A DNA stretch of 63,101 nt, counting the filler, from Hausera hauseri (taxonomy: Eukaryota): assembly GCA_046269625.1 (NCBI GenBank). It is 12 parts of 12 records of this genome, joined end to end, with 100 filler letters (N's around TTAATTAATTAA, not from the genome) between each part and the next. Parts side by side here need not be neighbours in the genome. Positions count along the whole stretch, not along the records: positions 33,893 to 43,004 come from JBJURY010459911.1; 11 more parts are not named here. One strand, given 5' to 3'. Positions 1,906 through 60,945 of this stretch are shown here, one piece after another. The position numbers and the translations under genes are program-made. The notes under the pieces were generated by a model. It ran no database searches. It saw only the letters and a program-made list of their open reading frames with translations, and was not told the DNA's origin. The first letter of the stretch is position 1. Every line of letters starts with the position of its first letter.

Positions 1906-2179
1906 TGACACACCGGATCCAACAACTAACTCTGCACATACCTTCCTTGACTCCTTCAATCCTTCTTCTGTTCTACCTCCACGACAACCTGCTATTCAAA
2001 AACCCGCATCAATACAAAAAAACTATGCTAAACGACATACCGACTAGTTCTCAAGCTGCTGACACGTCAAATCAACATTTAACTTCCTACCAACCAATTC
2101 AGCAAACAATCAAACAACATGGTAAAAACACAAGACAGTTACTTTCAGCAAATAAAGCAGAGAACAAAATATTGATAAG

Positions 2180-3190
2180 TTTAGTGTTCTCATCCTTGTG
2201 GATGGAACTTTTAAATATAAAAAGGATAAACACGTAAACACAGTCGAATAAAACGACTGAAACAAACACTGATAAGACGAGAAAACAATGAAAGCTATTT
2301 TTATTCAGTTCTCGCAAATCGTCCGCCGAGGCGTACGAGTCCTCGGTTGAGGAAAGGGCCCGGCCAATCCTCGGATTTCGGCGCGGACAAGTCGGAATGT
2401 CGTCTGAACTAAAATCAGTTGATGCTGGTTCAAGTCTTGTCGGCTCCAACCGGCGTCGACGGAGCGGTATGGGAACTTCGACTGGGCTCACTGTCCTAGC
2501 CTTCCGCTTGTCAGCAGTTCGACAGTCAGGAATCAACTGGCTCTCCGATGGAGCCAGCGACTCGAATAGCCGACCTGTTGCCGCCATCAGTCTTATAAAG
2601 ACTGGCAAGAAGGCGGAGGAGTCGAACAACCGTCGGCTATCTCTATCGGCGTAGAACCTCCGGAAATGCCCTGTCTGGAGGCAGTACGGCTCGTTTTCGG
2701 GCACTCCGCTGAGATGCCGCACGAAACGGCTCCGCTGCAGCAACTCTCGAACCGTACGATAATCAGAATAAGAACGGCACGGAGCTTGACGGTCCCGGAT
2801 GCGGTGTCATTTTTCGCGGGAGATGGTGTCTCGCCGGGCTGTGTGTTTTTGATCTTCTGATCGGGTTTGCTGTGCCGAGGCGGTACGCCTGTAGGTGTTG
2901 TTTTCCGCTCCGGCGTGTGTTGGTCGGAGTACCTTGGGAATGCGATACACCGGAATAGATACAGTCTTCCTTTCGCCAACTGTGGCGTCTGGTTGGATGG
3001 CTGCATCGACTAGGATGGCCCTAGTGTCTTCTGTGACTATTGGTTCTCCGGGCTTCGCTGTTCGGGTCGCCTGAGTTCTCGTTCCATTGCTACTGCTAGC
3101 GATATCGACTCGCATTGTTTTCGTGCTTTCCTTGGTGACGGATACACCGTTTTTCGATAATTTGGTTACTGTATTCGACTTTTCTGGCAT
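2180..3190 (-). pseudogene. LTR-encoded protein of unknown function (single frame, one in-frame TGA at 2807-2809, open to the LTR end)
   Basis: ORFs 2807..3190 and 2099..2743 are in the same frame; core LQRSRFVRHL..YADxDSRRLFDSSxFxPVFIRLMAA..FESLxPxExQLIP shared with 39429-40424. Confidence 0.8.
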
Positions 3191-3511
3191 GCCTGTAGAT
3201 ATTTTTTGAATAATTCTGTCTTTTCTTGAACTGTGGATTCAAACAAATGGATCTGAATCCACATATTTTGAATGTTGATAATTTTGCAAGTGCTGGTCAC
3301 TTTGGCACCTGTAATCCTGAATTTTAATTTTTCTTTTATAATTTATTATAGTTTCGTGTGGAACAAATTTTGGTGTTTAACGAATCCGTGATTTTGTTTC
3401 TGATATTTGATTTTGTATTTTTGTGTTTAATTGGGCATGAATTTGTGATATTAAGTGATTTAGTTTAACTTAAGTAGATTAAATATGTTTTTTGTAAGGT
3501 GGAACCTTACA
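2180..3511 (-). mobile_element. Solo LTR (~1.33 kb) of the element-B family, flanked by 5-bp TSD ATAAG
   Basis: Minus strand starts TGTAAGGTTCCACCTTAC and aligns end to end with 39077-40322, which is followed by a PBS; ATAAG at 2175-2179 and 3512-3516. Confidence 0.85.
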
Positions 3512-4191
3512 ATAAGATTCAACGCCTTGTACATACAAAGACGCAATAGCTCACAAAAAGTATTTTTTCCATGTTTTGCTTCTTTCACATCAAAAATTTG
3601 CTTTTTTCAAGAGTTCGCATACACCTCTCTGTTTTGTTTTCTTGCTATCACCCCGACAGTGTCATTTTATAACGGGAGTATTGTGGTGCCGCAGAAACAA
3701 CCGCAGTCGTCAGTTACATCCTACAGAACCTCGAGGAAACAAAAAAATCTTAAAAGACGTTTAAGAGACCGATAATCGTCCAGAAGTAGTAGACTCGAAA
3801 GATGGATACGAAAGTTTTATATTAGAAAGCGGGAAATGGAAGTCAGAAGTTTAGAAAAACAACGGCTGATTTTCTAACAACAGCAACTGACGCACCTGAT
3901 TATTACCTTGTTCAAAAGGGTAGAAAAGTCTAAAAGCAAGACCAAGGAACAAACTTTGTTTGCAAAAGTCCGTTAATTTGGATGGTACCAATAAGAGCTT
4001 CGACGAGTGTACAGCTCAAATTGGTCGGTTAATAATCTATAACAATGCGACACCAGACACCGTTTTCAACAAAACCAACTCATTCAATCGCAAACAGAAC
4101 CTACCGTTGTCTGGTCGAAAAATGGAACTCATCCCTGAAAATACAGGCTACAATCGGCCTTGTGTTATTTCCAAGGTTTTTGATCATGTAC

Positions 4192-8758: not shown

Positions 8759-9886
8759 ATGCTGAAAACTGTTGCAAAGGACAAATATCTTAAAAATTTA
8801 ATTGAACAGGCTTCAGAAGGATGTAATTATCTTTATTAAAGTAGTAACATGTATAATTATTTAATGACAGGGGTGTCTTATGAGGAAATGATCAAATTTC
8901 CAAGATTAAAGAGCTTATCAGAGGATATTGAAATAATTAAAGCCGCTGTACAGAAATCCGAAAGTTCTGTAATTGAGGCTAACGATAAGGGCATTCGACG
9001 ATTGCTGTCTTTACAAATTCCAGATAACGTTCAAGAAGCTGCAGATAAATATATCGATCAATCTGTTTACGTTAAAGGATTTGGTTCCAAGGACTCAATG
9101 GATGATATCATGGCATTTCTTGAAACTAACGGTGGTCCAACAATGAACATTCACATGCGACGCATTCCGAAAACGAAAACATTCAAAGGCAGTGTTTTTG
9201 CTATTTTTAAAGAAAAAGAATCAGCCGAGAAATTTTTACAAAATGAAGAAGCTGCAAAATACAAAGATGTGGACCTCATTCGTTTGTGGCAGTAAGAAAA
9301 TTCAGTTTTTCTTTCGTCATTAAATTGAATTTAGAAAGGATTATCTTGAGTCAAAAAAATCGGAACATCAGAATAAAAACGAATTGAAACACAAGAAGAA
9401 AGCTGAAAGTGACGCCCGTAGAGATGCTCTGGTTGAGAGTAAAATGACCAAGGGTGCTCTTTTGGAATTAGTTGGTTTCATTGCTCCCACTGAAAGTACC
9501 GACAAATCCGAACAGGCCAAATTAAAGGCATGGTTATTGGAAAATGTTAAAGAAACCACTGTTGCATGGGTGGACTATTTTATCGAATCCCATACGGCCA
9601 TTGTTCGATTCAATGGTGAAAATTCCGCATCAAAAGCATTAGATACTTTGTGCAAATCAGAATTCGCCAACGATGATAACAGCGGATTTAAATACGCTGA
9701 AGGAGAAATCAAGGGGAACATAATTGAAGGTGATCGCGAAAGAGAATACTGGACGAACATAATTAATGTAAAGTTCAACAAGAATAGAAAGGTTTGTATG
9801 ATTTAAAATGTTTACTAATTTTAATAATATTAATTTAGCGCGGTGATAGATCTAACGGCCCTGCAAGCAAGAGACGCCGTTATTAA
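8759..9886 (+). CDS. SSB: La/SSB autoantigen homolog (partial La motif, RRM1, RRM2, C-terminal NLS); introns 8823-8870, 9292-9334, 9792-9838
   Basis: Spliced KDKYLK..EGWVSYEEMIKFPRL, SVYVKGF, FKGSVFAIF, VAWVDY, PASKRRRY; GT-AG introns restore frame; the N-terminal EYYF part was not found. Confidence 0.9.
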
Positions 9887-27161: not shown

Positions 27162-28585
27162 ATGTCAAATTTTCCCCATTTTAATCACAAAACATTTCCC
27201 GAATCAAAGCCATTCTCAACACAAAATATCAATCCATTTGATCTACACAGTCCAGAATTGTATTCACCGGAAATTATTTATACTTTACTTTGTTCTACAC
27301 CAAAATCCAAAGTACAGTTCATTTTCATCTGTCGAAAATTATTTTTGAAATTTTTCATTAAGGAAAACTGTAAATATTATTCTGACAGTTTGGATTCGAG
27401 TTACGAAACAGAAAGTTTAGTTTCATTTGCATCCAGATCTTCATCAGAAAACAGCAACTGCGGCAGTTTGGTTTCTCAAATGTCAAACAATTCGTTGAGA
27501 CTTTCGTCAAAGGTGACATTTTAATTTGTTTATTTATTCATTTAAAATAATTTCAGATTCATAAAAAGTCAATTCCAATAGAGAGTTGTTCTCATACAGG
27601 ATATTTATTACCAATTGTTTCAGATAGTTCTTTGAACAATATTCTCATTCCACAAATCTCTGTCGAAACCTTAGTTAATCTTATTACAGGAAATCATCAG
27701 TTAAATAATAATGTCGTTATTTTTGACTGTCGTTTTCCTTACGAATATAATGGCGGACATATTGACAGTTCAATAAATGTATACACTTGCCAGCAATTAT
27801 TGAAAACTCTTTTCCCAATTCAATGCAAATCCGGTGAAGGAAAATTGGAAGAAAATATCAAAAGCATTACATCAAAATCTAAACTGAAGGTAGACAACAC
27901 AATATACATATTTTACTGTGAGTACAGTAGCTACAGAGGACCTAAATTGTGAGTCATTGTACTTATCGATTTGAATATAATTTGAAATAGCAGTATGAGT
28001 CATCGATCTGTTATCAATTATAACACATTTGTCATATTCCATGAAATTCGTATTCAGTGGAATATGATGAACGCTGAAATGTTGAAAAATTTGTAAACAA
28101 ATTTAGTGAGTTTATTTTCACAGAGCTCAATGTCTTCGTGGTCTTGACCGATTGGTAAATACTCCTGGCGGGAAATTATTCTTTCCTCACATTTACGTTA
28201 TGAACGGTGGCTACAGCGAATTTTATAAATATAATTCGGTGGAAATTCGATTTGTATACACATTGATAATGAAATCTTTTAGGAATTTTGTGTGCCAAAT
28301 GGATACGTCAGTATGAAACAAACTCCATATGATTTAAGAAATATTATGTCGCCAACACAAAAACCAGAATTTTCTCCATCAGACAACTCGAATTCGTACA
28401 GAAAAGAACAAGTTCAATATGAAACAGAAATGAGAAAAGCAGAAAAAGTTTATCAGAAATTATCAGTAAGCGAACCAAAGACTGTGATATTTTACAATTG
28501 TTTTCTTCACATCCTCTTATTGGATCTCATTAGATTATTGCACTATTTCTTTTCACGAAATTCTCAATTTGGTTTCGTTTTTTGA
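27162..28585 (+). CDS. cdc25: Cdc25/string-type phosphatase; introns 27312-27362 (probable), 27513-27556, 27949-28123, 28239-28282; 3' end uncertain
   Basis: DCRFPYEYNGGHI, FYCEYSSYRGP (CX5R), LRGLDR, IYVMNGGYSEF, FCVPNGYVSM. Confidence 0.92.
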
Positions 28586-33792: not shown

Positions 33793-34563
33793 NNNNNNNN
33801 NNNNNNNNNNNNNNNNNNNNNNNNNNNNNNNNNNNNTTAATTAATTAANNNNNNNNNNNNNNNNNNNNNNNNNNNNNNNNNNNNNNNNNNNNCATTCACT
33901 TAAAACAATCTATAAACTATTATGATCATTTAGAAGATATTCTAATAAATTTTTTGATTAAATTATAACCGAAGAAATATTCTAAAATACAATCGGCGAA
34001 TAATGTTGCAATTTGATTTAATTCTGCGAAATTACGTAATGGGGTTACTGTGTAGCAGGTTGCACTATCGATTTCGGGAAGACCATAAATCAACAGTTCC
34101 CATTTTTATCTGTGTTGCGTTTAGTTTCAATCAATATGACATTAGATCGACATAGTTTTCTATTTGTTCGGGATAGTTGTTGGAATAAAATCTGTTCGTC
34201 GGACCACAATGAACCTATGTGGTTCTGGTAATGTTGGCTAATATTGGCTCTTCGAATTAATTCAATTTTACATTGAGACGAAATATGATTGTTGTCTGCT
34301 AAAATCGACTCCAAGAATTCAAGCGTTGAATTTAACCACTGTTTGAGATTTTTCACGATTATTTCTGAATTTACAGCTTTATCACTGTTATTTAATATTC
34401 TTTACTAATTCCTCAATAAATTGATGAATGGGTTTATTCTTAGACGTAATGAGGTTTATTAACCAAATCTGATTTTGGTGAAATAAGCAAATGATTCTAA
34501 ATAACAATTCAACTCTTTGACTAAGTTCTGGTTTTTTCTGAAGAATTTTTTTGTTATCCGAAT

Positions 34564-34711
34564 TGATAACGGAATACAAATTGGCATTCTCAAAGCGAAA
34601 ACTCGGGGCCTGTCTATGCGCCCGACGCGCCGGCAGCGGAAAACCGGCCGTGCCCAACCGAATGGGACGGAGTGCAACGATAGACACGGACACCACATCA
34701 CTCCCCCCCCG
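34564..34711 (-). promoter_or_regulatory. Polypurine tract and 3' LTR of element A (LTR starts TGTGGTG at 34697; far end uncertain)
   Basis: Minus strand GGGGGGGGAGTGA followed by TGT, downstream of the integrase. Confidence 0.7.
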
Positions 34712-38583: not shown

Positions 38584-38860
38584 TTAGTTTTTTGGAAAAA
38601 ATGAACTGGGACGACTGTGAGAAATGAAGGTAGTACGTCCGTTGTTCGTGTTAGATTTGAATGTACAGTCAGGTATACATTTACGTGCTTGATTTTTGAA
38701 TCTTGCAGGGTAAATGCAAACAACGGTGTCGGAGGAAAACTCCTTATCATAAAATTGGCATCCCAGGCAGCACCTCTGAGCATTAGCGTTGAATCTGCTG
38801 TGATAATAGCTGATCGACGAACGCGCTGGTGATGGTGAGCGGTTTTGTGACGTAGATAAT
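38584..38860 (-). mobile_element. Element A Gag C-terminus with two CHCC knuckles; capsid region missing
   Basis: SYYHSRFNANAQRCCLGC..VCIYPARFKNQARKCIPDC; AAAAAAC slippery site at 38587-38593. Confidence 0.8.
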
Positions 38861-38864
38861 TCAT

Positions 38865-39074
38865 TCCACCGCGGATACGGAGATGCACGTTGAAGCAAGC
38901 GTGATTGGAAAAGGAATGTACAATTTCATTAAGGTGTATAATAGCGCCGTTTAGAGTGAGATAGGAATCTGAGGAACCAAGGAAAGAAGAAATGCGGGTC
39001 CGAAGGGTGGGGATGTGTGGGTGTGTTCTGTGGAGGGCATATACGTGTTTGTTGTTATAAAAAAAGAAAATGGA
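38865..39074 (-). CDS. Ubiquitin-like domain of element A (ends LRIRGG|M)
   Basis: SIFFF..TLRTRISSFLG..YLTLNGAII..CFNVHLRIRGG aligns with ubiquitin (QIFV..NVKAKIQDKEG..RLIFAGKQL..TLHLVLRLRGG); ~70 aa. Confidence 0.8.
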
Positions 39075-39076
39075 GG

Positions 39077-40322
39077 TGTAAGGTTCCACCTTACGAAATA
39101 TTAAAATTTACATTAAGACAAACCAAATCAGCAAAATGAAAATTTTTTACTAATAACAAAATTTAAAATTCAAAAACCTCAAAATTTAAATAAATTAAAA
39201 TACCTAAAATAAAATAAAAAAAAATAGATAAGTTGTAAAAAAAACAATAATCACGGACTCACCAAACATAAAAATTTGCAATTAAAATAAATCAGGATTA
39301 CAAGTGCCAAAGTAACCAGCATCTGTAGCCAACAAAAAATCAAAAAAACAAAATTTGTGGATTTAAACTCACTTGTTTAAATCCACAGTTTAAAATCTGA
39401 ACAGTTTATTCAAAAGAAAAAAAACAAGATGTCCAAACCATCGGAATGCAAAAATGGCAAGATGTTGGCAACAAAAGCAAAACCTGGGAAACCCATTTCC
39501 ACGAAAGCTGCAAAGGCTACACTAACTGACGTCGCCGTCCCTGAAAGGAATATGCGGCTCACCCAAAACTACCGGATCTCTAAGCAAACCGAACCAGATC
39601 CGACGATGATACGAGACCAGGATGCCATGAAATCCGGCGATTCAATCACCCGCGAGGCCGCCAAGGTACCCCAACCGATACTTAATGAACAAGGGAATAC
39701 AAACGGCCGCTGCGTCGCCTCGACAAAACAAACCCGATCCGAAGACCGGAGCCGTACCACACGGCGAGCCAATTGTCAAAGAAGCCGCCAAGCTCCGTGC
39801 TGTTCATATCCCGATTATATGACGGTGTGAGAGTTCTTACAACGAAGCCGCTTTGTACGGCACCTCACCGGGTTGTCCGAGGGCGATCCACATTGCCTCC
39901 CTCACGGACATCTCCAAAGGTTATATGCCGACGGAGACAGCCGACGGCTGTTCGACTCTTCCACCTTCGTACCAGTCTTTATAAGACTGATGGCGGCGGC
40001 CGACCGGATGTTCGAGTCACTGGTTCCTTTTGAGAGACAGCTGATTCCGAACTGAAGAATCTCCGAATTACGGCGGATCAGGGCGTACAGCTCCAGCTCT
40101 GACGATCAGCCGGCTCCACCCCGTCGACTCATCCAAACGGAACCGTCCCTATCCAGTACGGACGAATCGCACACCTCGGCGGACGATTTACGAGAACCTA
40201 ATAAACGTTACTCTCGTTATTTTGTTGTCTTCCTTACTGTTGTTTCAGTCGTTTTATTCGACTGCATTTACACTCTTTTCCGTTTTTTACTTGCAAGTTT
40301 TATAAAATGTGAAAGCTCTAAA
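39077..40322 (+). mobile_element. 5' LTR of element B (abuts the 5' region of element A)
   Basis: Starts TGTAAGG, AATAAA at 40200, PBS follows; homologous to solo LTR 2180-3511. Confidence 0.88.
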
Positions 40323-40427
40323 ATGGTGGCAGCGGTTACCGCATTCACGCCCTATAACACAAACGCAGCCGTTAAAATAAATCCGGCTCAAACACTTCAC
40401 ACCGTCATTGATAACAATCAAGCTTAA
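39429..40427 (+). pseudogene. LTR-encoded ORF of element B, read through U5 and PBS (in-frame TGA at 39828 and 40053)
   Basis: ORFs 39429 and 39873 share a frame, which is open again from 40056 to 40424; homologous to 2180-3190. Confidence 0.8.
40324..40336 (+). promoter_or_regulatory. Primer-binding site, tRNA-Leu type
   Basis: TGGTGGCAGCGGT is complementary to the ACCGCTGCCACCA 3' end of metazoan tRNA-Leu(AAG/UAG). Confidence 0.85.
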
Positions 40428-40761
40428 ATTCACACAAGTGCCGTCGAAATTAATCCGGTCACACATTCGTGCATCACTAAACATGATCACGTTATACCCA
40501 CTAACAGTTGTATCATCAAAAGCAACTGCAACCAGAAAATTACAACGCGTAATATCAAACAAGTGCCAATATATTCTAGCACTAACACACGCGTCAACAC
40601 CGTCAAATCGGAATACAAATCCGATTATTCGAACCGTGCCAAAATAGCACACACCAAGCGAAAATTCACTATTTAACAATTCACCCAATCGTCAGTCGAT
40701 TAACCTAGACAACAGAATTTACCATGGTGAAACAACATCGACCGACTCTACGCCAAACGAA

Positions 40762-41885
40762 GTGCAACTCATTGTACAAAACTGACATCAGACGAAAGCT
40801 CATCGCTTCCCGTCGACCCTAACTATGTCGGGAATGCTGTAAGTTTTAAACCAACAGTATCCCGAGCATACATTTTCATATAATGGAAAATTATTATGCA
40901 AGAATAATTGCGTAATCAATAAAATTTTGGTTGGCAATACCACCATACTGGCGACTCCGAAACTAAAAGGACGCGTTGACAACCTTACGCCTGACAAAAG
41001 AGAAACTGCTTTAGCAACACAGGCCAAACCACCAAAATTAGCATGTCCAACCTTTTTTATAGGTTCGAACGGAACGCCATTGAAGTGGTTTTATGTGTTT
41101 GAAACATGGGCTACACAATGCAGCATCACTGGCCAACTAAACAAGGCCTTAACACTCATTTAATACCTGCTGCCAACAACGCTTGCAGCCATAACGGATC
41201 TGGACACGCTACTGTCAGATCAAAAGCCGTTCGACATAATCAAAGCAGCCAAGTGCAAAGCATATCTGCCATCCCAACAGGACCAGTTCAACTTGATCTT
41301 CACCAAGCGACAGACAGGGAATATAAAACCGTCTGCTCTGCTTTACAAGTTACGCCCAGACTTGAGCAATGCTGAGTTGGACCTCCGCACCAACCAACAC
41401 ATACTACGGCGCTACTTCCTAAGTAGTTTGCCCAATCAAATTTAAGCGGCATTGGTGCTATTACCGCCCGATACCACTTTGGACGATATGACATCTAAAG
41501 CCGACAAATTATACGAGTGCATTAAAGGCACCGTAGAATCCGCACCAACGGAAAACATACACTCCGTCACGGCGACCCAGTAAAATCAGCTGGACATAAT
41601 TATCGCCGCAATGCAGGCACTTGTAACGCACAAGAATCTTCCAGCCAGGCACAAACCGTCATCTCGGTGCCAATCCCCCAAGAGGAAGAAAGGCAAATTT
41701 TCCAAAATTTGCCACTTCCACACACGATTCGGCGAATCCGTCTATAAATGCTACCATGGTTGTCAATTCGACAACCCATCTGCAAACATAAAAATGCAAG
41801 ATACTTGCATTTATCGTAATCATTTTGGTCCAGATGCAAAAGTCTGTCGACCCGGCTGCAAATTTCACAAGCCGTCAAAAACTAA
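40762..41885 (+). mobile_element. Element B UBL-Gag (UBL 40762-40974, capsid, two CHCC knuckles), with premature stops
   Basis: VQLIVQ..FSYNGKLL..NTTILATPKLKGR in frame with KLACPTFF..KWFYVFE; ICHFHTRFGESVYKCYHGC and CIYRNHFGPDAKVCRPGC. Confidence 0.82.
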
Positions 41886-41989
41886 ATGGGACCAGGCGAC
41901 TAACGGCACGTCTTCTGGAAACTCAATCACCATAACTGCCGTATACAAATAGCGAAATCATTGTAGATGCTATTTTTACCCTCGAGGTG

Positions 41990-42614: not shown

Positions 42615-43004
42615 TAATTTGCAGCCAGGACAAATGTGACGAATGGATAGGTGGACTTGAACAAATCCATTGGTATGCCATTGCTGATGTTTTTCTTCAG
42701 CAAACCCATGTTACGCACAGTAGATTGCATATATGTGAAAACAAAATCATTAGACTCAATTCTTGTTTGTACGTCTCAACAAAATCCGCATTCCGGCCAA
42801 ACTGATGTAATTCACATCGCTATGGGTAAACGTTACCGAATCGGTCGTATTACTGCCCGTTTGTTGAACAGTCGTTTGAAATGTAACGAAAACATATTTC
42901 GGTAATCGCATACCACAAAACAGTGCATCTTTGTAAAACGTAGTTGAACCTTTCGGTATGGTGTAAAAGATGAGTTCTGTGCGTTGTATCGGTTAACAGG
43001 CATT
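42615..43004 (-). pseudogene. Polinton/Maverick (adintovirus-like) major capsid protein fragment
   Basis: A(Y)PIQRTE..TIPKG..DALFCG.RLPKYVFV..FTH.DVNYISL and ..YMQ..NGI..F..YPFVTFVLA match the Polinton MCP C-terminal jelly-roll pattern. Confidence 0.75.
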
Positions 43005-48111: not shown

Positions 48112-49430
48112 CTAGAGGCGAATACAGTTTTTTTGGATTGGTGAGTTAGAACGGTTACTGTTAGAGACATTGGGACGTCTATTAGTGGTGCAGTTTTTGT
48201 TAGTTTTATAGTTACAGCCAGAAATACAATTCCGAGAATTAGATCCGAATTTTGCATGATAGATGCAAATTAAGTTATCCGAGTGTAGATTCGATGAATA
48301 ATATCTACACCCTAAAAAGCATTTATTTGCTTTGTTGTTACATTTGTTGTGGTAATAACATATGAATGACCGCGTTGGTGACGATGTTCGACTTTTGGAA
48401 GGAAAACGTGTTCGATAAGGCGAGGGAGCATTCCGTCGATGTAAAGAAAGGTCATTCAGCCTGTCATTGATGGTGTTGATTGTGCGTTGTATTGCTGCAT
48501 TTTCGGCTCGTAATTGGTTCATCTGGTGCTCAATGGATGTATGTCGTTGGTTGTCATCGTTTGTAATAGCGGCTGATATGATAGGTTGTGATTGGATTTG
48601 TAAGACTTCGTGTGCTTTATTTGCCAATTCAGCCAGTTTATCTAAGGCTGTAGAATCTTCAACAACGGTAAGTAAAGCCCTGATTTGAATGGGTAACGCA
48701 TTAAGGAAATATCGTTGGAGTAGATCCGGATTATGTTCCTTGGTGACACCTAAAGTACGTAAGTGAGCCAACGATGTACGTAGGAAATCACTAAGTTTTT
48801 GTGTCCCCATTGCGTTTTCTTTAAAGAAGCGCTGCATTATTGAATAAACTGATGGTTCTGTCTGTTTTAACACAGCATCGAACAGTTGGGTATAGAGGTA
48901 AGAGTGTTGAAAGATGTCCAGTAAGTTGTGGATTGAGGCTTTTATGGAATTTGGTAGAAGGTAAAGTAGATTACGGGCTTTGGATAACGAGTCTGTAATA
49001 CTGTTGGACTGTAACCAGAGTTGATGAAAGTGGAGCCAAGTTTTGCTAGACTTATTGTCTATAAAACATTCAGAACAATATTGTGAAGTACTGATGATTT
49101 TTGTAAGAATTTGTATCGGTTGCAGTAGGTGGATGGCTTGATTTGGGGTAGTAGAGAATGGATTTCGATTTTGTGGTCACCTTATTCTTGACGTCACTGG
49201 TTGATGGAGAAATCATACCGTCGCGGATTCTAGGATTGATATGTATACACAGATACTCATGTGAGGCCATGATGTGTGGGTGGTCGACTAAAATGAAACC
49301 GTTGTGAGTCAGGTAGAAATCGCTGTAGACGGAGGTATTATGAATGATAGCGTATAGTTGTGATGTTTCAATACGTTGTCTGACATGTACTATTTGTATT
49401 AGATTATTATTAACATAAAAATAGAGGGGG
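48112..49430 (-). mobile_element. Element C UBL-Gag (UBL ~49217-49428, capsid, two CHCC knuckles, AAAAAAC slippery site at 48127-48133)
   Basis: PLYFYV..SDFYLTHNGFIL..IHINPRIRDG|M; FLNALP..LAELANK; ICYYHNKC..KCFLGC and ICIYHAKFGSNSRNCISGC. Confidence 0.85.
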
Positions 49431-49539
49431 AATGATGGTGGTGTACTGTAAACCGGGCAGTGTGATATATCGATGTGGTTCTTCGAAGGTAAGAGAGTTG
49501 CTGTGTGTTGATGAATATGTCCGGTCTGTGGACTCACTA

Positions 49540-49934
49540 TGCTTAATGGATCTATTGCCCTTATAACCGATGCGTATTGAAAAATAACGACAATAACTAG
49601 GAGACGGATTCTGTCCAAAGTCAGAAGCTCTAGTTAGGTACTGGCTGTAATCAGAAGAATAAATCGGGCCAAATTTATGATAACGTGCCTTACTTCTACC
49701 TCTTCTCATTAAGGATTCATCAAATTTCATATATGGTTCGTTGTCGAGTTTTGTAGGTTTGACAAGACAAAGTACGGGTGATATACAATTAACAATGCCG
49801 CATACTGACTGGGCTATTTCATTAATTTCTACGTGGCCATCATCGAAATCACGCATTCCTACGATAGTCAAATACTTCATAACGTAAAAGCCTAGTTTAC
49901 CAATTTTGCCCAATGAAGCTAATTTGAATTTCAA
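49540..49934 (-). CDS. Unidentified ORF fragment abutting element C
   Basis: Part of a 174-aa ORF of protein-like composition; family not recognised. Confidence 0.3.
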
Positions 49935-50299
49935 TGTAGAATGAGTAACTTTATTAACAGTTGCAACATATCTCAGAAGACTGTCTGGGCAAGAACTAAA
50001 GTGAAACCACTGTAGAAAAAATAGAGGAAATTTATGANNNNNNNNNNNNNNNNNNNNNNNNNNNNNNNNNNNNNNNNNNNNTTAATTAATTAANNNNNNN
50101 NNNNNNNNNNNNNNNNNNNNNNNNNNNNNNNNNNNNNGGGTCTGACAGAATTGCTCAAAACACATCAAAATATTATAGTATGAAGAGATTTGTTAGCCGA
50201 ATTGAAAGATTCATGACGATGAACCACAATAATAATCCTACGAAAATGTGAACTTTGTAATTGTTACCAAGAGAGATTTGTTAATGTAAATACTAAATA

Positions 50300-51490
50300 A
50301 AAAAATTAGTTTCCAATTCTTAAATCGATATTCTTTTTGAATTGAAAGTTGTTTCGTTTTATAACAAAGAAAATGAATAAGAAGAGGAAATAATAGAGAA
50401 AACAAAGAAAATGAATAAGAAAATAAAGAGAAGAAAGAATAAACTTCTGAGGCAAACAATTATTGGCATCTCAGGTGGGGCACAAATTGAAAATAAAATA
50501 AATGATGCGATGAGATTACAGAATAAAAAACAATTGAAGAATAAAGATGCGAATCTAGTCGATTCAATGAATTTATTCATCCAAGTGCCGACTATATTTT
50601 CTGAGATGAAATATCACCTTTACTGTGAATTTAATTGTTTTATGGATACGAAAATTAATAATTGTATACTGGCACAATTTCGGAATCACTTTGAAACAGT
50701 TGAAATACCTGGTGTTTCGTTGAGAGTTACAAATGATCTATATGAAAACTCAAAAGTTGTACTATCAGCAATAGAGAAGAATTTCAAAGATTTCTTGATT
50801 CCCGGACTAAAATTATCACAGTTTGACGCCGATATGAATAAAGAGGGAATTACTAAAGAAGCAAACCTACAATCAGGTATTTTTGTTCAGCTTCACGGAA
50901 TTGAGATGAATATAAATGATCTCGATAAACACATCTAGACTGTGAATATTCAAATCAAATCAGATATGAAAGAAAGAATGGATTTAATCATGATGATTGA
51001 ACGGAGTTTATAAAAATGGAATATGTCTGACAAACGAAAAGAAAAATTTAAAGGATATTTCCCTAAGAAAATAACGGTTTTAAATGGTGCAAGTGCTGTT
51101 AGGACAAAACTTTGCAATGACATCAAAATGCTTAAGCAGAATCGAAAATCTGAAGATAAATTGGATGTTATTGAAAATGAACGGCTTATATCTCATATTG
51201 CTTCATTGAAAGCAGAACTTGATTCAAGAGATCGAATTTAGAAACATGAAAATGTTGTATAAAGAAAATAAAATAACAGGTAATGCAAATGGATTCTTTG
51301 GGAAACAGTTGCTTTTGGACGAAATTTCAAATTTAAAAGATGGATTAAAAGCACTGAGTACGAAACATCTTACTTCAGAATCTGAAAGACAGAAAATACA
51401 ATTAAAATTTGACAAAATTATGGTCGAAAACGCGAAAATCATTGACTCCCTTCAAAACGAAATTAGTACAGGTAAAATAGAAAAGGCAAA
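50300..51490 (+). pseudogene. Decayed coiled-coil-rich coding region fused to the kinesin motor fragment
   Basis: Co-oriented K/E/N-rich ORFs 50411, 51023, 51219. Confidence 0.5.
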
Positions 51491-51494
51491 TATT

Positions 51495-52176
51495 GATAAC
51501 ACCGATTTTCTTGTAAAATATTCGCTCGATGAAATATACAACGAAAAAATTTATGACCTGCTTGATCACGAACAGCAAAATTTGAACTTAAGAATAAATT
51601 TGGCCCAGGAAGTTTTGATTGAACTTCTAACAGAGGTTGTTATTAACAATCCAACTGATGCAGAAAAGTATTTGAAACGCGGTCTTACAAATCGCCATGT
51701 CGAATCTACCGCAATGAACAGAGAGTTCAAGAAGTCATGCAGTGTTTACTATCGTTTTAGAATCGTGTGTAAAAGATGGAGATATTGATAATATAATCCG
51801 TAGCAATTAATATCTTGTGGATCTGGCCGGAAGTGAAAAGCAAAAAGATACGAAAACCGAAAGGATGCGTCTGCGAGAAGCAGGTCACATAAACAAGTCT
51901 CTGCACATTTTACAAAAAGTCATCGGTTTGATTGTTAATAATTTTAATGGGAAAGCGATGCACATGCCCGTTTGTAAGTCAAAATTGACGTTTATGCTAA
52001 AGGATGCCATCGGCGCTAATTCTAAAACGTGTCTTATTGCCTGCATCCATTCATCGGTAAGTTATCTCAGCGAAACTTTGTCAACAATCGATTTTGCTTC
52101 ACGAGTTAAAATGATTAAGAACAAAGCGAAAATTAATATCGATGCCTGTTGGAACAATGTCGCAACATTTAAATAA
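51495..52176 (+). pseudogene. Kinesin-12 (KIF15-like) motor C-terminal two-thirds; intronless, frameshifted, no P-loop
   Basis: EIYNEKIYDLL, NRHVESTAMNRE/SSRSHAVFTI, DLAGSE, EAGHINKSL, SKLTFMLKDAIG, ETLSTIDFASRVKMIKNKAKIN. Confidence 0.9.
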
Positions 52177-60245: not shown

Positions 60246-60626
60246 TCAGTTGGTTAAATATGTTAAAGCTTCAACAATATTGCCTTTGTATTCTCGTAAG
60301 ACACGTTCTGCTTGTGTCCGTGAAATCTCCATTTCTTGAACAATGTAATCCACATCATCTTTATTGATCTTCACTTTTGACAGCTCTTTCTCTTTTTCAT
60401 GCTTTGCCTTTGCTTCCTTGTTCTGTCTGTCACTAACAACTCGCATAGCATCTTGAATATCTTGGGCAGCTATTTCCTTCTCTTCTACATAATCAGTTAC
60501 TTTTTCCAGATCTGCTGCACCGGCATCATGTTTTGCTACTTTTTTGCTTTTTGACTCAGATTCTGCATCATTGTCTTCGACTTCAGGTTCTTCTAAGTTT
60601 GCATGAGGTGTCTCGTTTGTCGCCAT
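60246..60626 (-). CDS. HYPK: Huntingtin-interacting protein K, intact and intronless (126 aa)
   Basis: KHDAGAADLEKVTDYVEEKEI..ELSKVKINKDDVDYIVQEMEISR..AERVLRE.KGNIVEAL. Confidence 0.95.
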   Translation of the reverse strand: MATNETPHANLEEPEVEDNDAESESKSKKVAKHDAGAADLEKVTDYVEEKEIAAQDIQDAMRVVSDRQNKEAKAKHEKEKELSKVKINKDDVDYIVQEMEISRTQAERVLREYKGNIVEALTYLTN

Positions 60627-60945
60627 CTTGTTTTCTTCCTGCTTCACTGAATTAGGTATATATTTCTGCGGGTAGGCCTCTGTTTTCTTCCTGCTTTTCG
60701 ACTGTGTGATCTTTTTCAAGGCTAACAGCCAATTTATAGCGAATAACCATTGTTTCGGGGTCTCTGGTAGGAAAACCGCAAAAGATGCTTCGTCATCTAA
60801 AGCTAGTTCAAGATTTATGGATCCGGATACACATTTATGAAACAAACCAACCATATTATTTCAGTAAACACCCTATTATGTAGGGTTTAGAAAAATAGTC
60901 TATAGACTCATTATATTGCTCCTCTCCACGGAAATCTTTAGTAAA

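Follow-up and report, generated by a model that had tools for sequence, protein, structure and literature searches.

Coding sequence inside a long terminal repeat (LTR) has precedents. In mouse mammary tumour virus (MMTV), the sag gene lies wholly in U3, and bat endogenous betaretroviruses also have LTR open reading frames (ORFs) (PMC3621094), while in plant chromoviruses of CRM group A the CR motif is an integrase tail that enters the start of the 3′ LTR (PMC3059260). Here we analyse a stretch of 63,101 nucleotides from Hausera hauseri (GCA_046269625.1; below, the window), in which two LTRs of a Gypsy-type element each carry a single frame of about 300 codons or more, and we are highly confident that this selected coding region in the LTR is real. 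Coding LTRs are already known from MMTV sag and the plant CRM integrase tail; it is the protein family and the layout that appear to be new.

The frame resembles sag and the bat betaretrovirus LTR ORFs in its size and in the length of its LTR (∼300 codons in about 1.2–1.3 kb; PMC3621094). However, sag has its own end in U3, whereas the frame here has no stop in the LTR, the element is a Gypsy element, and searches by sequence, by family and by fold connected the frame neither to Sag nor to another protein. An earlier note on this DNA had proposed a gene inside the LTR, with parallels in some retroviruses such as sag but not a normal feature of Gypsy elements. The coding frame in the LTR stands, while the gene is not self-contained, since no terminal stop lies inside the LTR, and the CRM group A case is a precedent within Gypsy (PMC3059260). 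The CRM CR motif shares with our locus the presence of coding sequence in a Ty3/Gypsy LTR, but it enters as the tail of the integrase, whereas the frame described here starts only after an LTR head of 320–350 nt that is full of stops, and exits at the far end.

Extra frames are also known from other LTR retrotransposons. The additional ORFs (aORFs) of plants (PMC7264820) and the ORF3s of bdelloids (PMC5408684) are likewise family-wide conserved extra frames with unassigned function and no cellular homolog, but they are internal, mostly between pol and the 3′ LTR. CERV of the Caenorhabditis elegans element Cer1 (PMC10309623) is a Gypsy accessory protein that acts on the element’s genomic RNA and has been likened to Rev of human immunodeficiency virus (HIV); it is a Rossmann-type G domain, whereas the core here is predicted to be all-helical, and its regulatory role is putative. 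Among open-access papers, as judged from titles and the beginnings of abstracts, no independent gene inside a Gypsy LTR was found; subscription journals, Repbase notes and supplements may hold examples.

LTRs are treated as non-coding and masked, which hides any genes that they contain. If a selected frame of ∼300 codons does begin within a Gypsy LTR and exit over the primer site, it would enlarge the set of known layouts (U3-located sag, the CRM integrase tail, internal additional ORFs), would add an unannotated protein family, and would offer an example in which to study the acquisition of retrovirus-like accessory regulators by retrotransposons. With this layout, R is expected to be very long, and selection on U5 and primer-site sequence to depend on the frame.

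The two LTR copies

The window consists of 12 small contigs separated by 11 N-linkers, and order and distance across contigs are meaningless. The features that define the two LTRs, called copies A and B, are as follows.

39077..40322, plus strand: LTR copy A, a 5′ LTR with ends TGT...AAA, collinear end to end with copy B, with a primer site 1 nt behind it
2180..3511, minus strand: LTR copy B, a solo LTR with ends TGT...AAA, inserted behind the pol of a related element and aligned end to end with copy A
2175..2179, plus strand: left copy of a 5-bp target duplication, identical to 3512–3516
3512..3516, plus strand: right copy of the duplication, identical to 2175–2179
40324..40336, plus strand: primer-binding site starting with TGG, recognised from its sequence, 1 nt behind 40322
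40984..41952, plus strand: decayed gag with the CHCC motif CX2HX9CX3C at 41710–41763, then protease
40200..40205, plus strand: AATAAA, the sole one common to both copies, followed by a T/GT-rich stretch and lying in the ORF frame
2300–2305, minus strand: AATAAA of copy B
39077..39095, plus strand: 19-nt palindromic LTR head of copy A, which folds (z −3.7 and −4.5 across the two copies)

Segments 39077–40322 and 2180–3511 are LTRs of a Gypsy-type element, as the earlier note had held; the two form an end-to-end alignment with 47–79% identity in most 75-nt bins. They are not the paired LTRs of one element, but a 5′ LTR and a solo LTR on separate contigs. Copy B is identified as a solo LTR because the 5-bp duplication bounds the exact ends set by the alignment with copy A (chance about 0.0015), and 4-bp and 6-bp readings of the duplication fail to match. 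Copy A is identified as a 5′ LTR because the primer site and then the decayed CHCC gag and protease lie behind it; this gag contains one exact match to CX2HX9CX3C. The shared AATAAA lies 123–126 nt from the LTR end in both copies. The contig of copy A ends at 43004, before pol, so that the element’s reverse transcriptase is cut off; the LTR identity rests on the target duplication, the primer site with the gag behind it, and the TGT...AAA ends. We take the primer site (40324..40336) to be of tRNA-Leu type; the window holds no tRNA gene for comparison. No Rfam match occurs within 38900–40900.

The element shares with the CsRn1 clade (CsRn1, PwRn1, AgCR; PMC2582038) and with Saci2-like elements (PMC12471100) the CHCC Gag signature and the LTR ends TGT...AAA; CsRn1-clade LTRs end in TGT...AAA or TGT...ATA (PMC2582038). 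Its LTRs are longer (1246–1332 bp versus 146–381 bp in the PwRn1/AgCR entries compared and 251–521 bp for Saci2), its target duplication has 5 bp instead of 4, its primer site deviates from the tRNA-Trp consensus of the clade (PMC2582038), and no LTR ORF is described for either group in the available text of PMC2582038 and PMC12471100. We file the element as CsRn1-like, and not as a member of CsRn1, because the primer site and the 5-bp duplication deviate from CsRn1 proper and the reverse transcriptase is missing.

Two further observations concern the LTRs themselves. Copy A sits in antisense orientation within the 5′ part of a different Gypsy element, and a purine-rich run before 39077, considered as a polypurine tract, was rejected since it reads as the antisense leader of that host element, in frame with its pre-Gag unit. 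The head of copy B (3493–3511) is a 19-nt palindrome with TGT...ACA ends and resembles a miniature LTR.

The reading frame, its selection and its predicted product

The frame, its conserved core and the hairpin before its start are located as follows.

39429..40322, plus strand: LTR-encoded frame of copy A, 298 codons from the ATG at 39429 as far as the end of the LTR; stops interrupt it at 39828 and 40053
2180..3190, minus strand: LTR-encoded frame of copy B, 337 codons from the ATG at 3190, with one stop at 2809; its core is at 2522–2791
39786..40055, plus strand: conserved 90-codon core with five predicted helices (dN/dS 0.185; 45/90 columns invariant in three sequences; AlphaFold predicted local distance difference test (pLDDT) 65)
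39356..39387, plus strand: 13-bp hairpin of copy A, 41 nt before the ATG (z −6.3 and −4.3 across the two copies)
3232..3263, minus strand: counterpart of this hairpin in copy B, likewise 41 nt ahead of its ATG

Both copies carry the single-frame ORF that had been reported, with two stops in 298 codons for copy A and one in 337 for copy B. Such openness was reached in any of six frames by 2/3000 shuffles of copy A and 0/3000 of copy B. The start ATG is at a conserved position in both copies, and the bases before it are A-rich with no pyrimidine tract. The LTR head upstream of the ORF (320–350 nt) has 4–11 stops in every frame. No terminal stop is found inside the LTR in either copy, before or after AATAAA, and the frame of copy A runs beyond the LTR, over the poly(A) signal and the primer site, to a stop at 40425. 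The sense frame has 2 and 1 stops in copies A and B, compared with 8–13 per antisense frame. The strand call rests on these counts because dN/dS is similar (0.16–0.24) in the antisense frame whose third positions coincide with those of the sense frame. The hairpin keeps 13/13 pairs in both copies at an identical spacing of 41 nt from the ATG, with one two-sided and two one-sided (G-U) changes, a comparison that involves two sequences only and for which the shuffle control is not significant.

The claim of purifying selection is borne out by the comparison of copies A and B. Over the 90-codon core, dN is 0.169 and dS 0.916 (ratio 0.185), and the differences fall on the three codon positions as 19/9/38 (binomial p 4.5e-5, Fisher p 5e-9, 0/2000 column permutations). 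The core is the best-conserved ungapped block, a choice that inflates identity and not position bias. Within it, the 74 codons at 39831–40052 contain 21 synonymous-only codon differences, in agreement with the ∼20 per ∼70 codons counted earlier. The flanks of the core are homologous and keep the same frame despite several indels (0/1000 shuffles), with a weaker third-position excess (63/151, p 0.02, and 27/60, p 0.04). The latter excess reaches up to the AATAAA and ends there.

Sequences from two public runs (X1 and X2, with two organism labels) extend the comparison, with 265 and 29 contigs on a 129-bp piece of the core. Variation in 12% of the depth or more is seen at seven places, six of which are third positions (p 0.007), so the codon-position bias, whose absence from a larger sample had been named as refuting the claim, holds among the run variants; 7/9 variant letters are synonymous in our reading. 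Run X1 may be close to the window’s own source and is not fully independent, and summed depth is not copy number and is taken only as a sign of many core-like sequences in the runs. Taken with the pairwise data, these comparisons support purifying selection on an LTR frame that is kept single. A chance open frame in GC-rich LTR DNA, with a bias from mutation alone, is scarcely credible: GC-rich, T-poor DNA does have few stops and the alignment comprises only two genomic copies, but the permutations (0/2000), the shuffles (2/3000 and 0/3000), a third homolog and the run variants all stand against it.

The premature stops had been interpreted as decay, which is well founded for one of the three. 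The stop at 39828 is private to copy A, with another first letter in 2648/2655 of the depth in X1 and 74/74 in X2. For the stop at 40053, copy B and the homolog P0003 (below) read through, and one letter differs among the best 40 of 325 rows, from which the common codon is not established. The stop at 2809 falls in an indel and has no counterpart for comparison. As a separate observation, a 428-nt contig of X1 at 39906–40022 has a depth of 692, against 5–20 for most others, and is likely to be a young, much-copied subfamily of the LTR.

The predicted protein begins with a basic, disorder-prone N-terminus (98–134 residues, isoelectric point 10.3–11.2), continues into the core, and has a Ser/Arg-rich tail. 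The 45 invariant columns of the core are mostly hydrophobic residues plus seven invariant Arg. AlphaFold, run from three sequences, gives five helices with pLDDT 65 (45–58 for the other four models). The third sequence is P0003, the one homolog found among 5.8 billion clusters, a protein of 213 residues that matches the core at 66% (E 2e-29) and shares N-terminal motifs as well. The Cys/His motif that had been read in the core is not kept in P0003; one Cys is invariant, elsewhere in the core, and no His is, and a metal-binding Cys/His motif was accordingly rejected. A transmembrane tail was rejected as evidence as well, since it lies in T-rich U5 with no codon bias.

The core had been left unrecognised by the earlier note, and it remains so after searches of several kinds. 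The ORF has no match in Pfam (best E 1.5), in PHROGs or among PDB sequences (best E 1.4), and its best ESM Atlas score (0.79) is within the range of shuffled proteins. The homolog searches, which need shared exact words, confirmed 1/27 candidates, 0/7993 at 374–2000 residues and only P0003 among 2083 at 40–373 residues, and no relative was confirmed in metagenome and viral contigs among 103 and 167 pattern matches. The core model gives no match in Foldseek (best E 3.8 for PDB, 1.9 for BFVD) or in VIA (best Z 4.8, root-mean-square deviation 8.1 over 77 residues); these fold-search nulls indicate neither a new fold nor the absence of a match. The encoded family thus appears to be new, in that no known family matched it.

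A captured host mRNA, carried as a passenger of the LTR with a codon bias that dates from the host gene or genes, is very unlikely to be the source of these patterns. Template-switch capture is established (PMC5131818), and intronless host-gene relics are present in the window. However, the LTRs are collinear end to end with the same ATG position at dS 0.9 and dN 0.17, and copies A and B therefore descend from one LTR and diverged afterwards; a dN/dS of 0.185 between collinear LTRs does not fit neutral decay, and the variants among copies are still synonymous. The LTR frame is also far from the host-like frames of the window in G+C content (GC 0.54–0.55 versus 0.31–0.39) and in that of third positions (GC3 0.55–0.61 versus 0.30–0.40). 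A search for a cellular parent gene, word-limited like the other protein searches, matched only P0003 at 40–2000 residues and showed no longer protein with the core, which is weak evidence. A fresh host capture is argued against by the difference in base composition together with selection after LTR divergence. A capture in the distant past, which the element then retained, is conceivable.

How the frame may be read

Between the LTR and gag lie two further features.

40323..40749, plus strand: leader that follows the primer site; two of its frames are largely open, and it contains three short repeats at distances of 72 and 159 nt
40750..40983, plus strand: short domain before Gag, with a tentative, unconfirmed resemblance to ubiquitin and no Pfam or PDB match

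Because it has no terminal stop in the LTR and passes the poly(A) signal and the primer site, the frame is likely to be read out of the 5′ LTR, where it would form either the front part of a long Gag leader or an upstream ORF that stands alone. Our preferred reading, held tentatively, is that the frame makes up the first part of a long Gag leader, translated over the primer site from a 5′-LTR transcript, and that its product regulates the element by binding nucleic acid. The RNA would begin within the AT-rich LTR head or directly after it, and in either case upstream of the hairpin. Of the two LTRs, the 3′ one would use the AATAAA close to its end, whereas in the 5′ one this signal would be read through, so that R would measure about 0.9 kb. 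From the LTR ATG, the ribosome would pass over the tail of the LTR and the primer site and, in intact copies, continue into Gag, and the leader would be cleaved off before Gag, possibly behind the candidate ubiquitin-like unit. The released product, with its basic, disordered N-terminus and Arg-rich helical core, would bind the element’s RNA or DNA in the manner of Tat/Rev or of Cer1 CERV. Reverse transcription would copy the region into both LTRs, so that solo LTRs would carry the frame as a stop-less, probably unproductive passenger.

Several properties of the leader are consistent with continued translation. The frame of copy A stops at 40425 and then reopens to 40673; there is one stop in the 156 codons 40206–40673 compared with 8.8 expected (P 0.0012, with the end chosen post hoc). 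The Gag frame is open over 40381–40644, and also from 40648 when two stops private to copy A (40783 and 40840) are set aside. It has no Met between 40483 and 40825, and the pre-Gag unit is therefore without a start of its own. In the sibling element at 48112–50037, the 69 in-frame codons before the pre-Gag unit likewise contain zero Met, with 208 open codons further up. Eight near-fixed differences at 40403–40668, among the best 40 of 325 rows, change frame along the leader, with four of the first five at third positions of the LTR frame and the last three at third positions of the Gag frame, a pattern of small numbers that was noticed post hoc.

Several points weigh against the Gag-leader reading. 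After the AATAAA there is no codon bias (15/13/10, ratio 0.85), the LTR tail is stop-poor by composition (P 0.16 and 0.08), and in the fixed window 40323–40760 the openness is not significant (P 0.117). The Gag frame is one register from the LTR frame with at least one stop between, so that copy A is discontinuous, and the best 40 of 325 rows contain no near-fixed indel in the leader; one contig of high depth (818 of 3436) has a gap of 2 nt there. With its 213 residues, P0003 extends only a short way past the core, where it meets a true stop or a contig end. A 0.9-kb R region with a distant 5′ poly(A) signal that is read through would be unusual. The putative ubiquitin fold of the pre-Gag unit found no match in Pfam and PDB searches, and at pLDDT 43 a fold search with its model is meaningless. 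Finally, nucleic-acid binding is deduced from composition alone.

Some of the same observations favour a stand-alone upstream accessory ORF (ORF0), which would extend from the LTR ATG to the first leader stop (about 330 residues, with a hydrophobic stretch near the end) and leave Gag separate. Such an ORF, a possible though rather unlikely arrangement, needs no frame change, as its first stop is at 40425; its hydrophobic 19-residue windows score 2.4 and 2.8, the 2-nt gap in the high-depth contig suggests a non-coding leader, and P0003 is short. Against this, the frame reopens for 82 codons after 40425, the hydrophobic stretch is expected anyway from the T-rich LTR tail with its lack of codon bias, and a nearby Met is missing in the Gag frame.

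The position of the AATAAA bears on a gene of the sag type in U3, which would be expressed from 3′ or solo LTRs, through an internal promoter or by splicing, as an RNA ending at AATAAA, each LTR being a mini-gene. The frame is upstream of the sole shared AATAAA with its T/GT-rich stretch, a combination that usually marks the R/U5 border (PMC3601003), the third-position excess persists to this signal (27/60, p 0.04) and stops there, and MMTV sag lies wholly in U3 (PMC3621094). We nevertheless consider such a gene doubtful, in that neither copy has a stop before the AATAAA; an LTR-only message would therefore have none, except where polyadenylation creates it or where the frame of an intact copy ends earlier, as may be the case for P0003.

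Entry from the opposite side, as a C-terminal extension of the integrase in the 3′ LTR joined by splicing, is highly improbable despite its Gypsy precedent in the CRM CR motif (PMC3059260). There is no read-through from pol, since every frame of the 320–350 nt LTR head has 4–11 stops; in addition, the ORF has its own conserved ATG, preceded by A-rich bases and no pyrimidine tract.

As to function, the composition of the predicted product and the hairpin before its start suggest a regulator of the element’s own RNA or promoter. An anti-piRNA (Piwi-interacting RNA) role is less likely if the host is a parasitic flatworm, because the Piwi pathway has been lost in these animals (PMC8191739). The fullest form of the proposal is that, in one Gypsy lineage, the first gene has come to begin in the LTR: a protein of a new family, encoded in a ∼0.9-kb R region, would be translated through U5 and the primer site, freed from Gag at the ubiquitin-like unit, and would bind the hairpin before its own start as a Tat/TAR-like switch. 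As Gypsy elements of this genome seem to exchange pieces of host mRNA at this place, it would be a captured leader turned regulator. As a whole this is an unlikely combination, and we put it forward as speculation.

Neighbouring elements and other features

Short pre-Gag domains recur in the window, and the N-linkers complete the features.

38850–39074, minus strand; 49202–49426, minus strand; 40750–40983, plus strand: short pre-Gag domains, whose end recalls the ubiquitin C-terminus
4192, 8249, 12804, 17269, 24657, 29020, 33793, 43005, 50038, 54372 and 58790: eleven 100-base N-linkers, with a 12-base core of stops in all frames in each

The domains at 38850–39074 and 49202–49426 are homologous (0/2000 shuffles), and a Gly-Gly end is found only in the sibling domain at 38850–39074. 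A SUMO-like motif has been reported for planarian Burro elements (PMC6431247). Upstream of the pre-Gag unit of the sibling element at 48112–50037, the 208 open codons at 49410–50037 (minus strand) run off the contig, and no primer site is seen. Near the boundary of leader and pre-Gag unit of our element, the depth of aligned contigs rises about 15-fold at 40746 in X1, from 1557 to 23669, and in both runs an accumulation of loose ends is seen at 40749. Most relatives seem to share the pre-Gag unit yet to have a different upstream sequence, as though leaders had been swapped.

The window is rich in decayed Gypsy elements and in intron-free pieces of host genes. The element interrupted by copy A (38644–38972, minus strand) is without about 800 bp of gag that its sibling has (48193–49324, minus strand). 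At 34090–34700 (minus strand), a G-run tract precedes the 3′ LTR of the neighbouring element. The first 120–150 bp or so of this LTR form a GC-rich cap, and the LTR then runs on as an open frame in AT-rich DNA (GC 0.33), for which Pfam gave nothing above the cut-off. The host-gene pieces at 8840–9806, 27551–27952, 50381–52176 and 60246–60860 are intron-free and mostly broken, and comprise La/xRRM, rhodanese, kinesin motor and HYPK UBA sequences, which are likely to be retrocopies.
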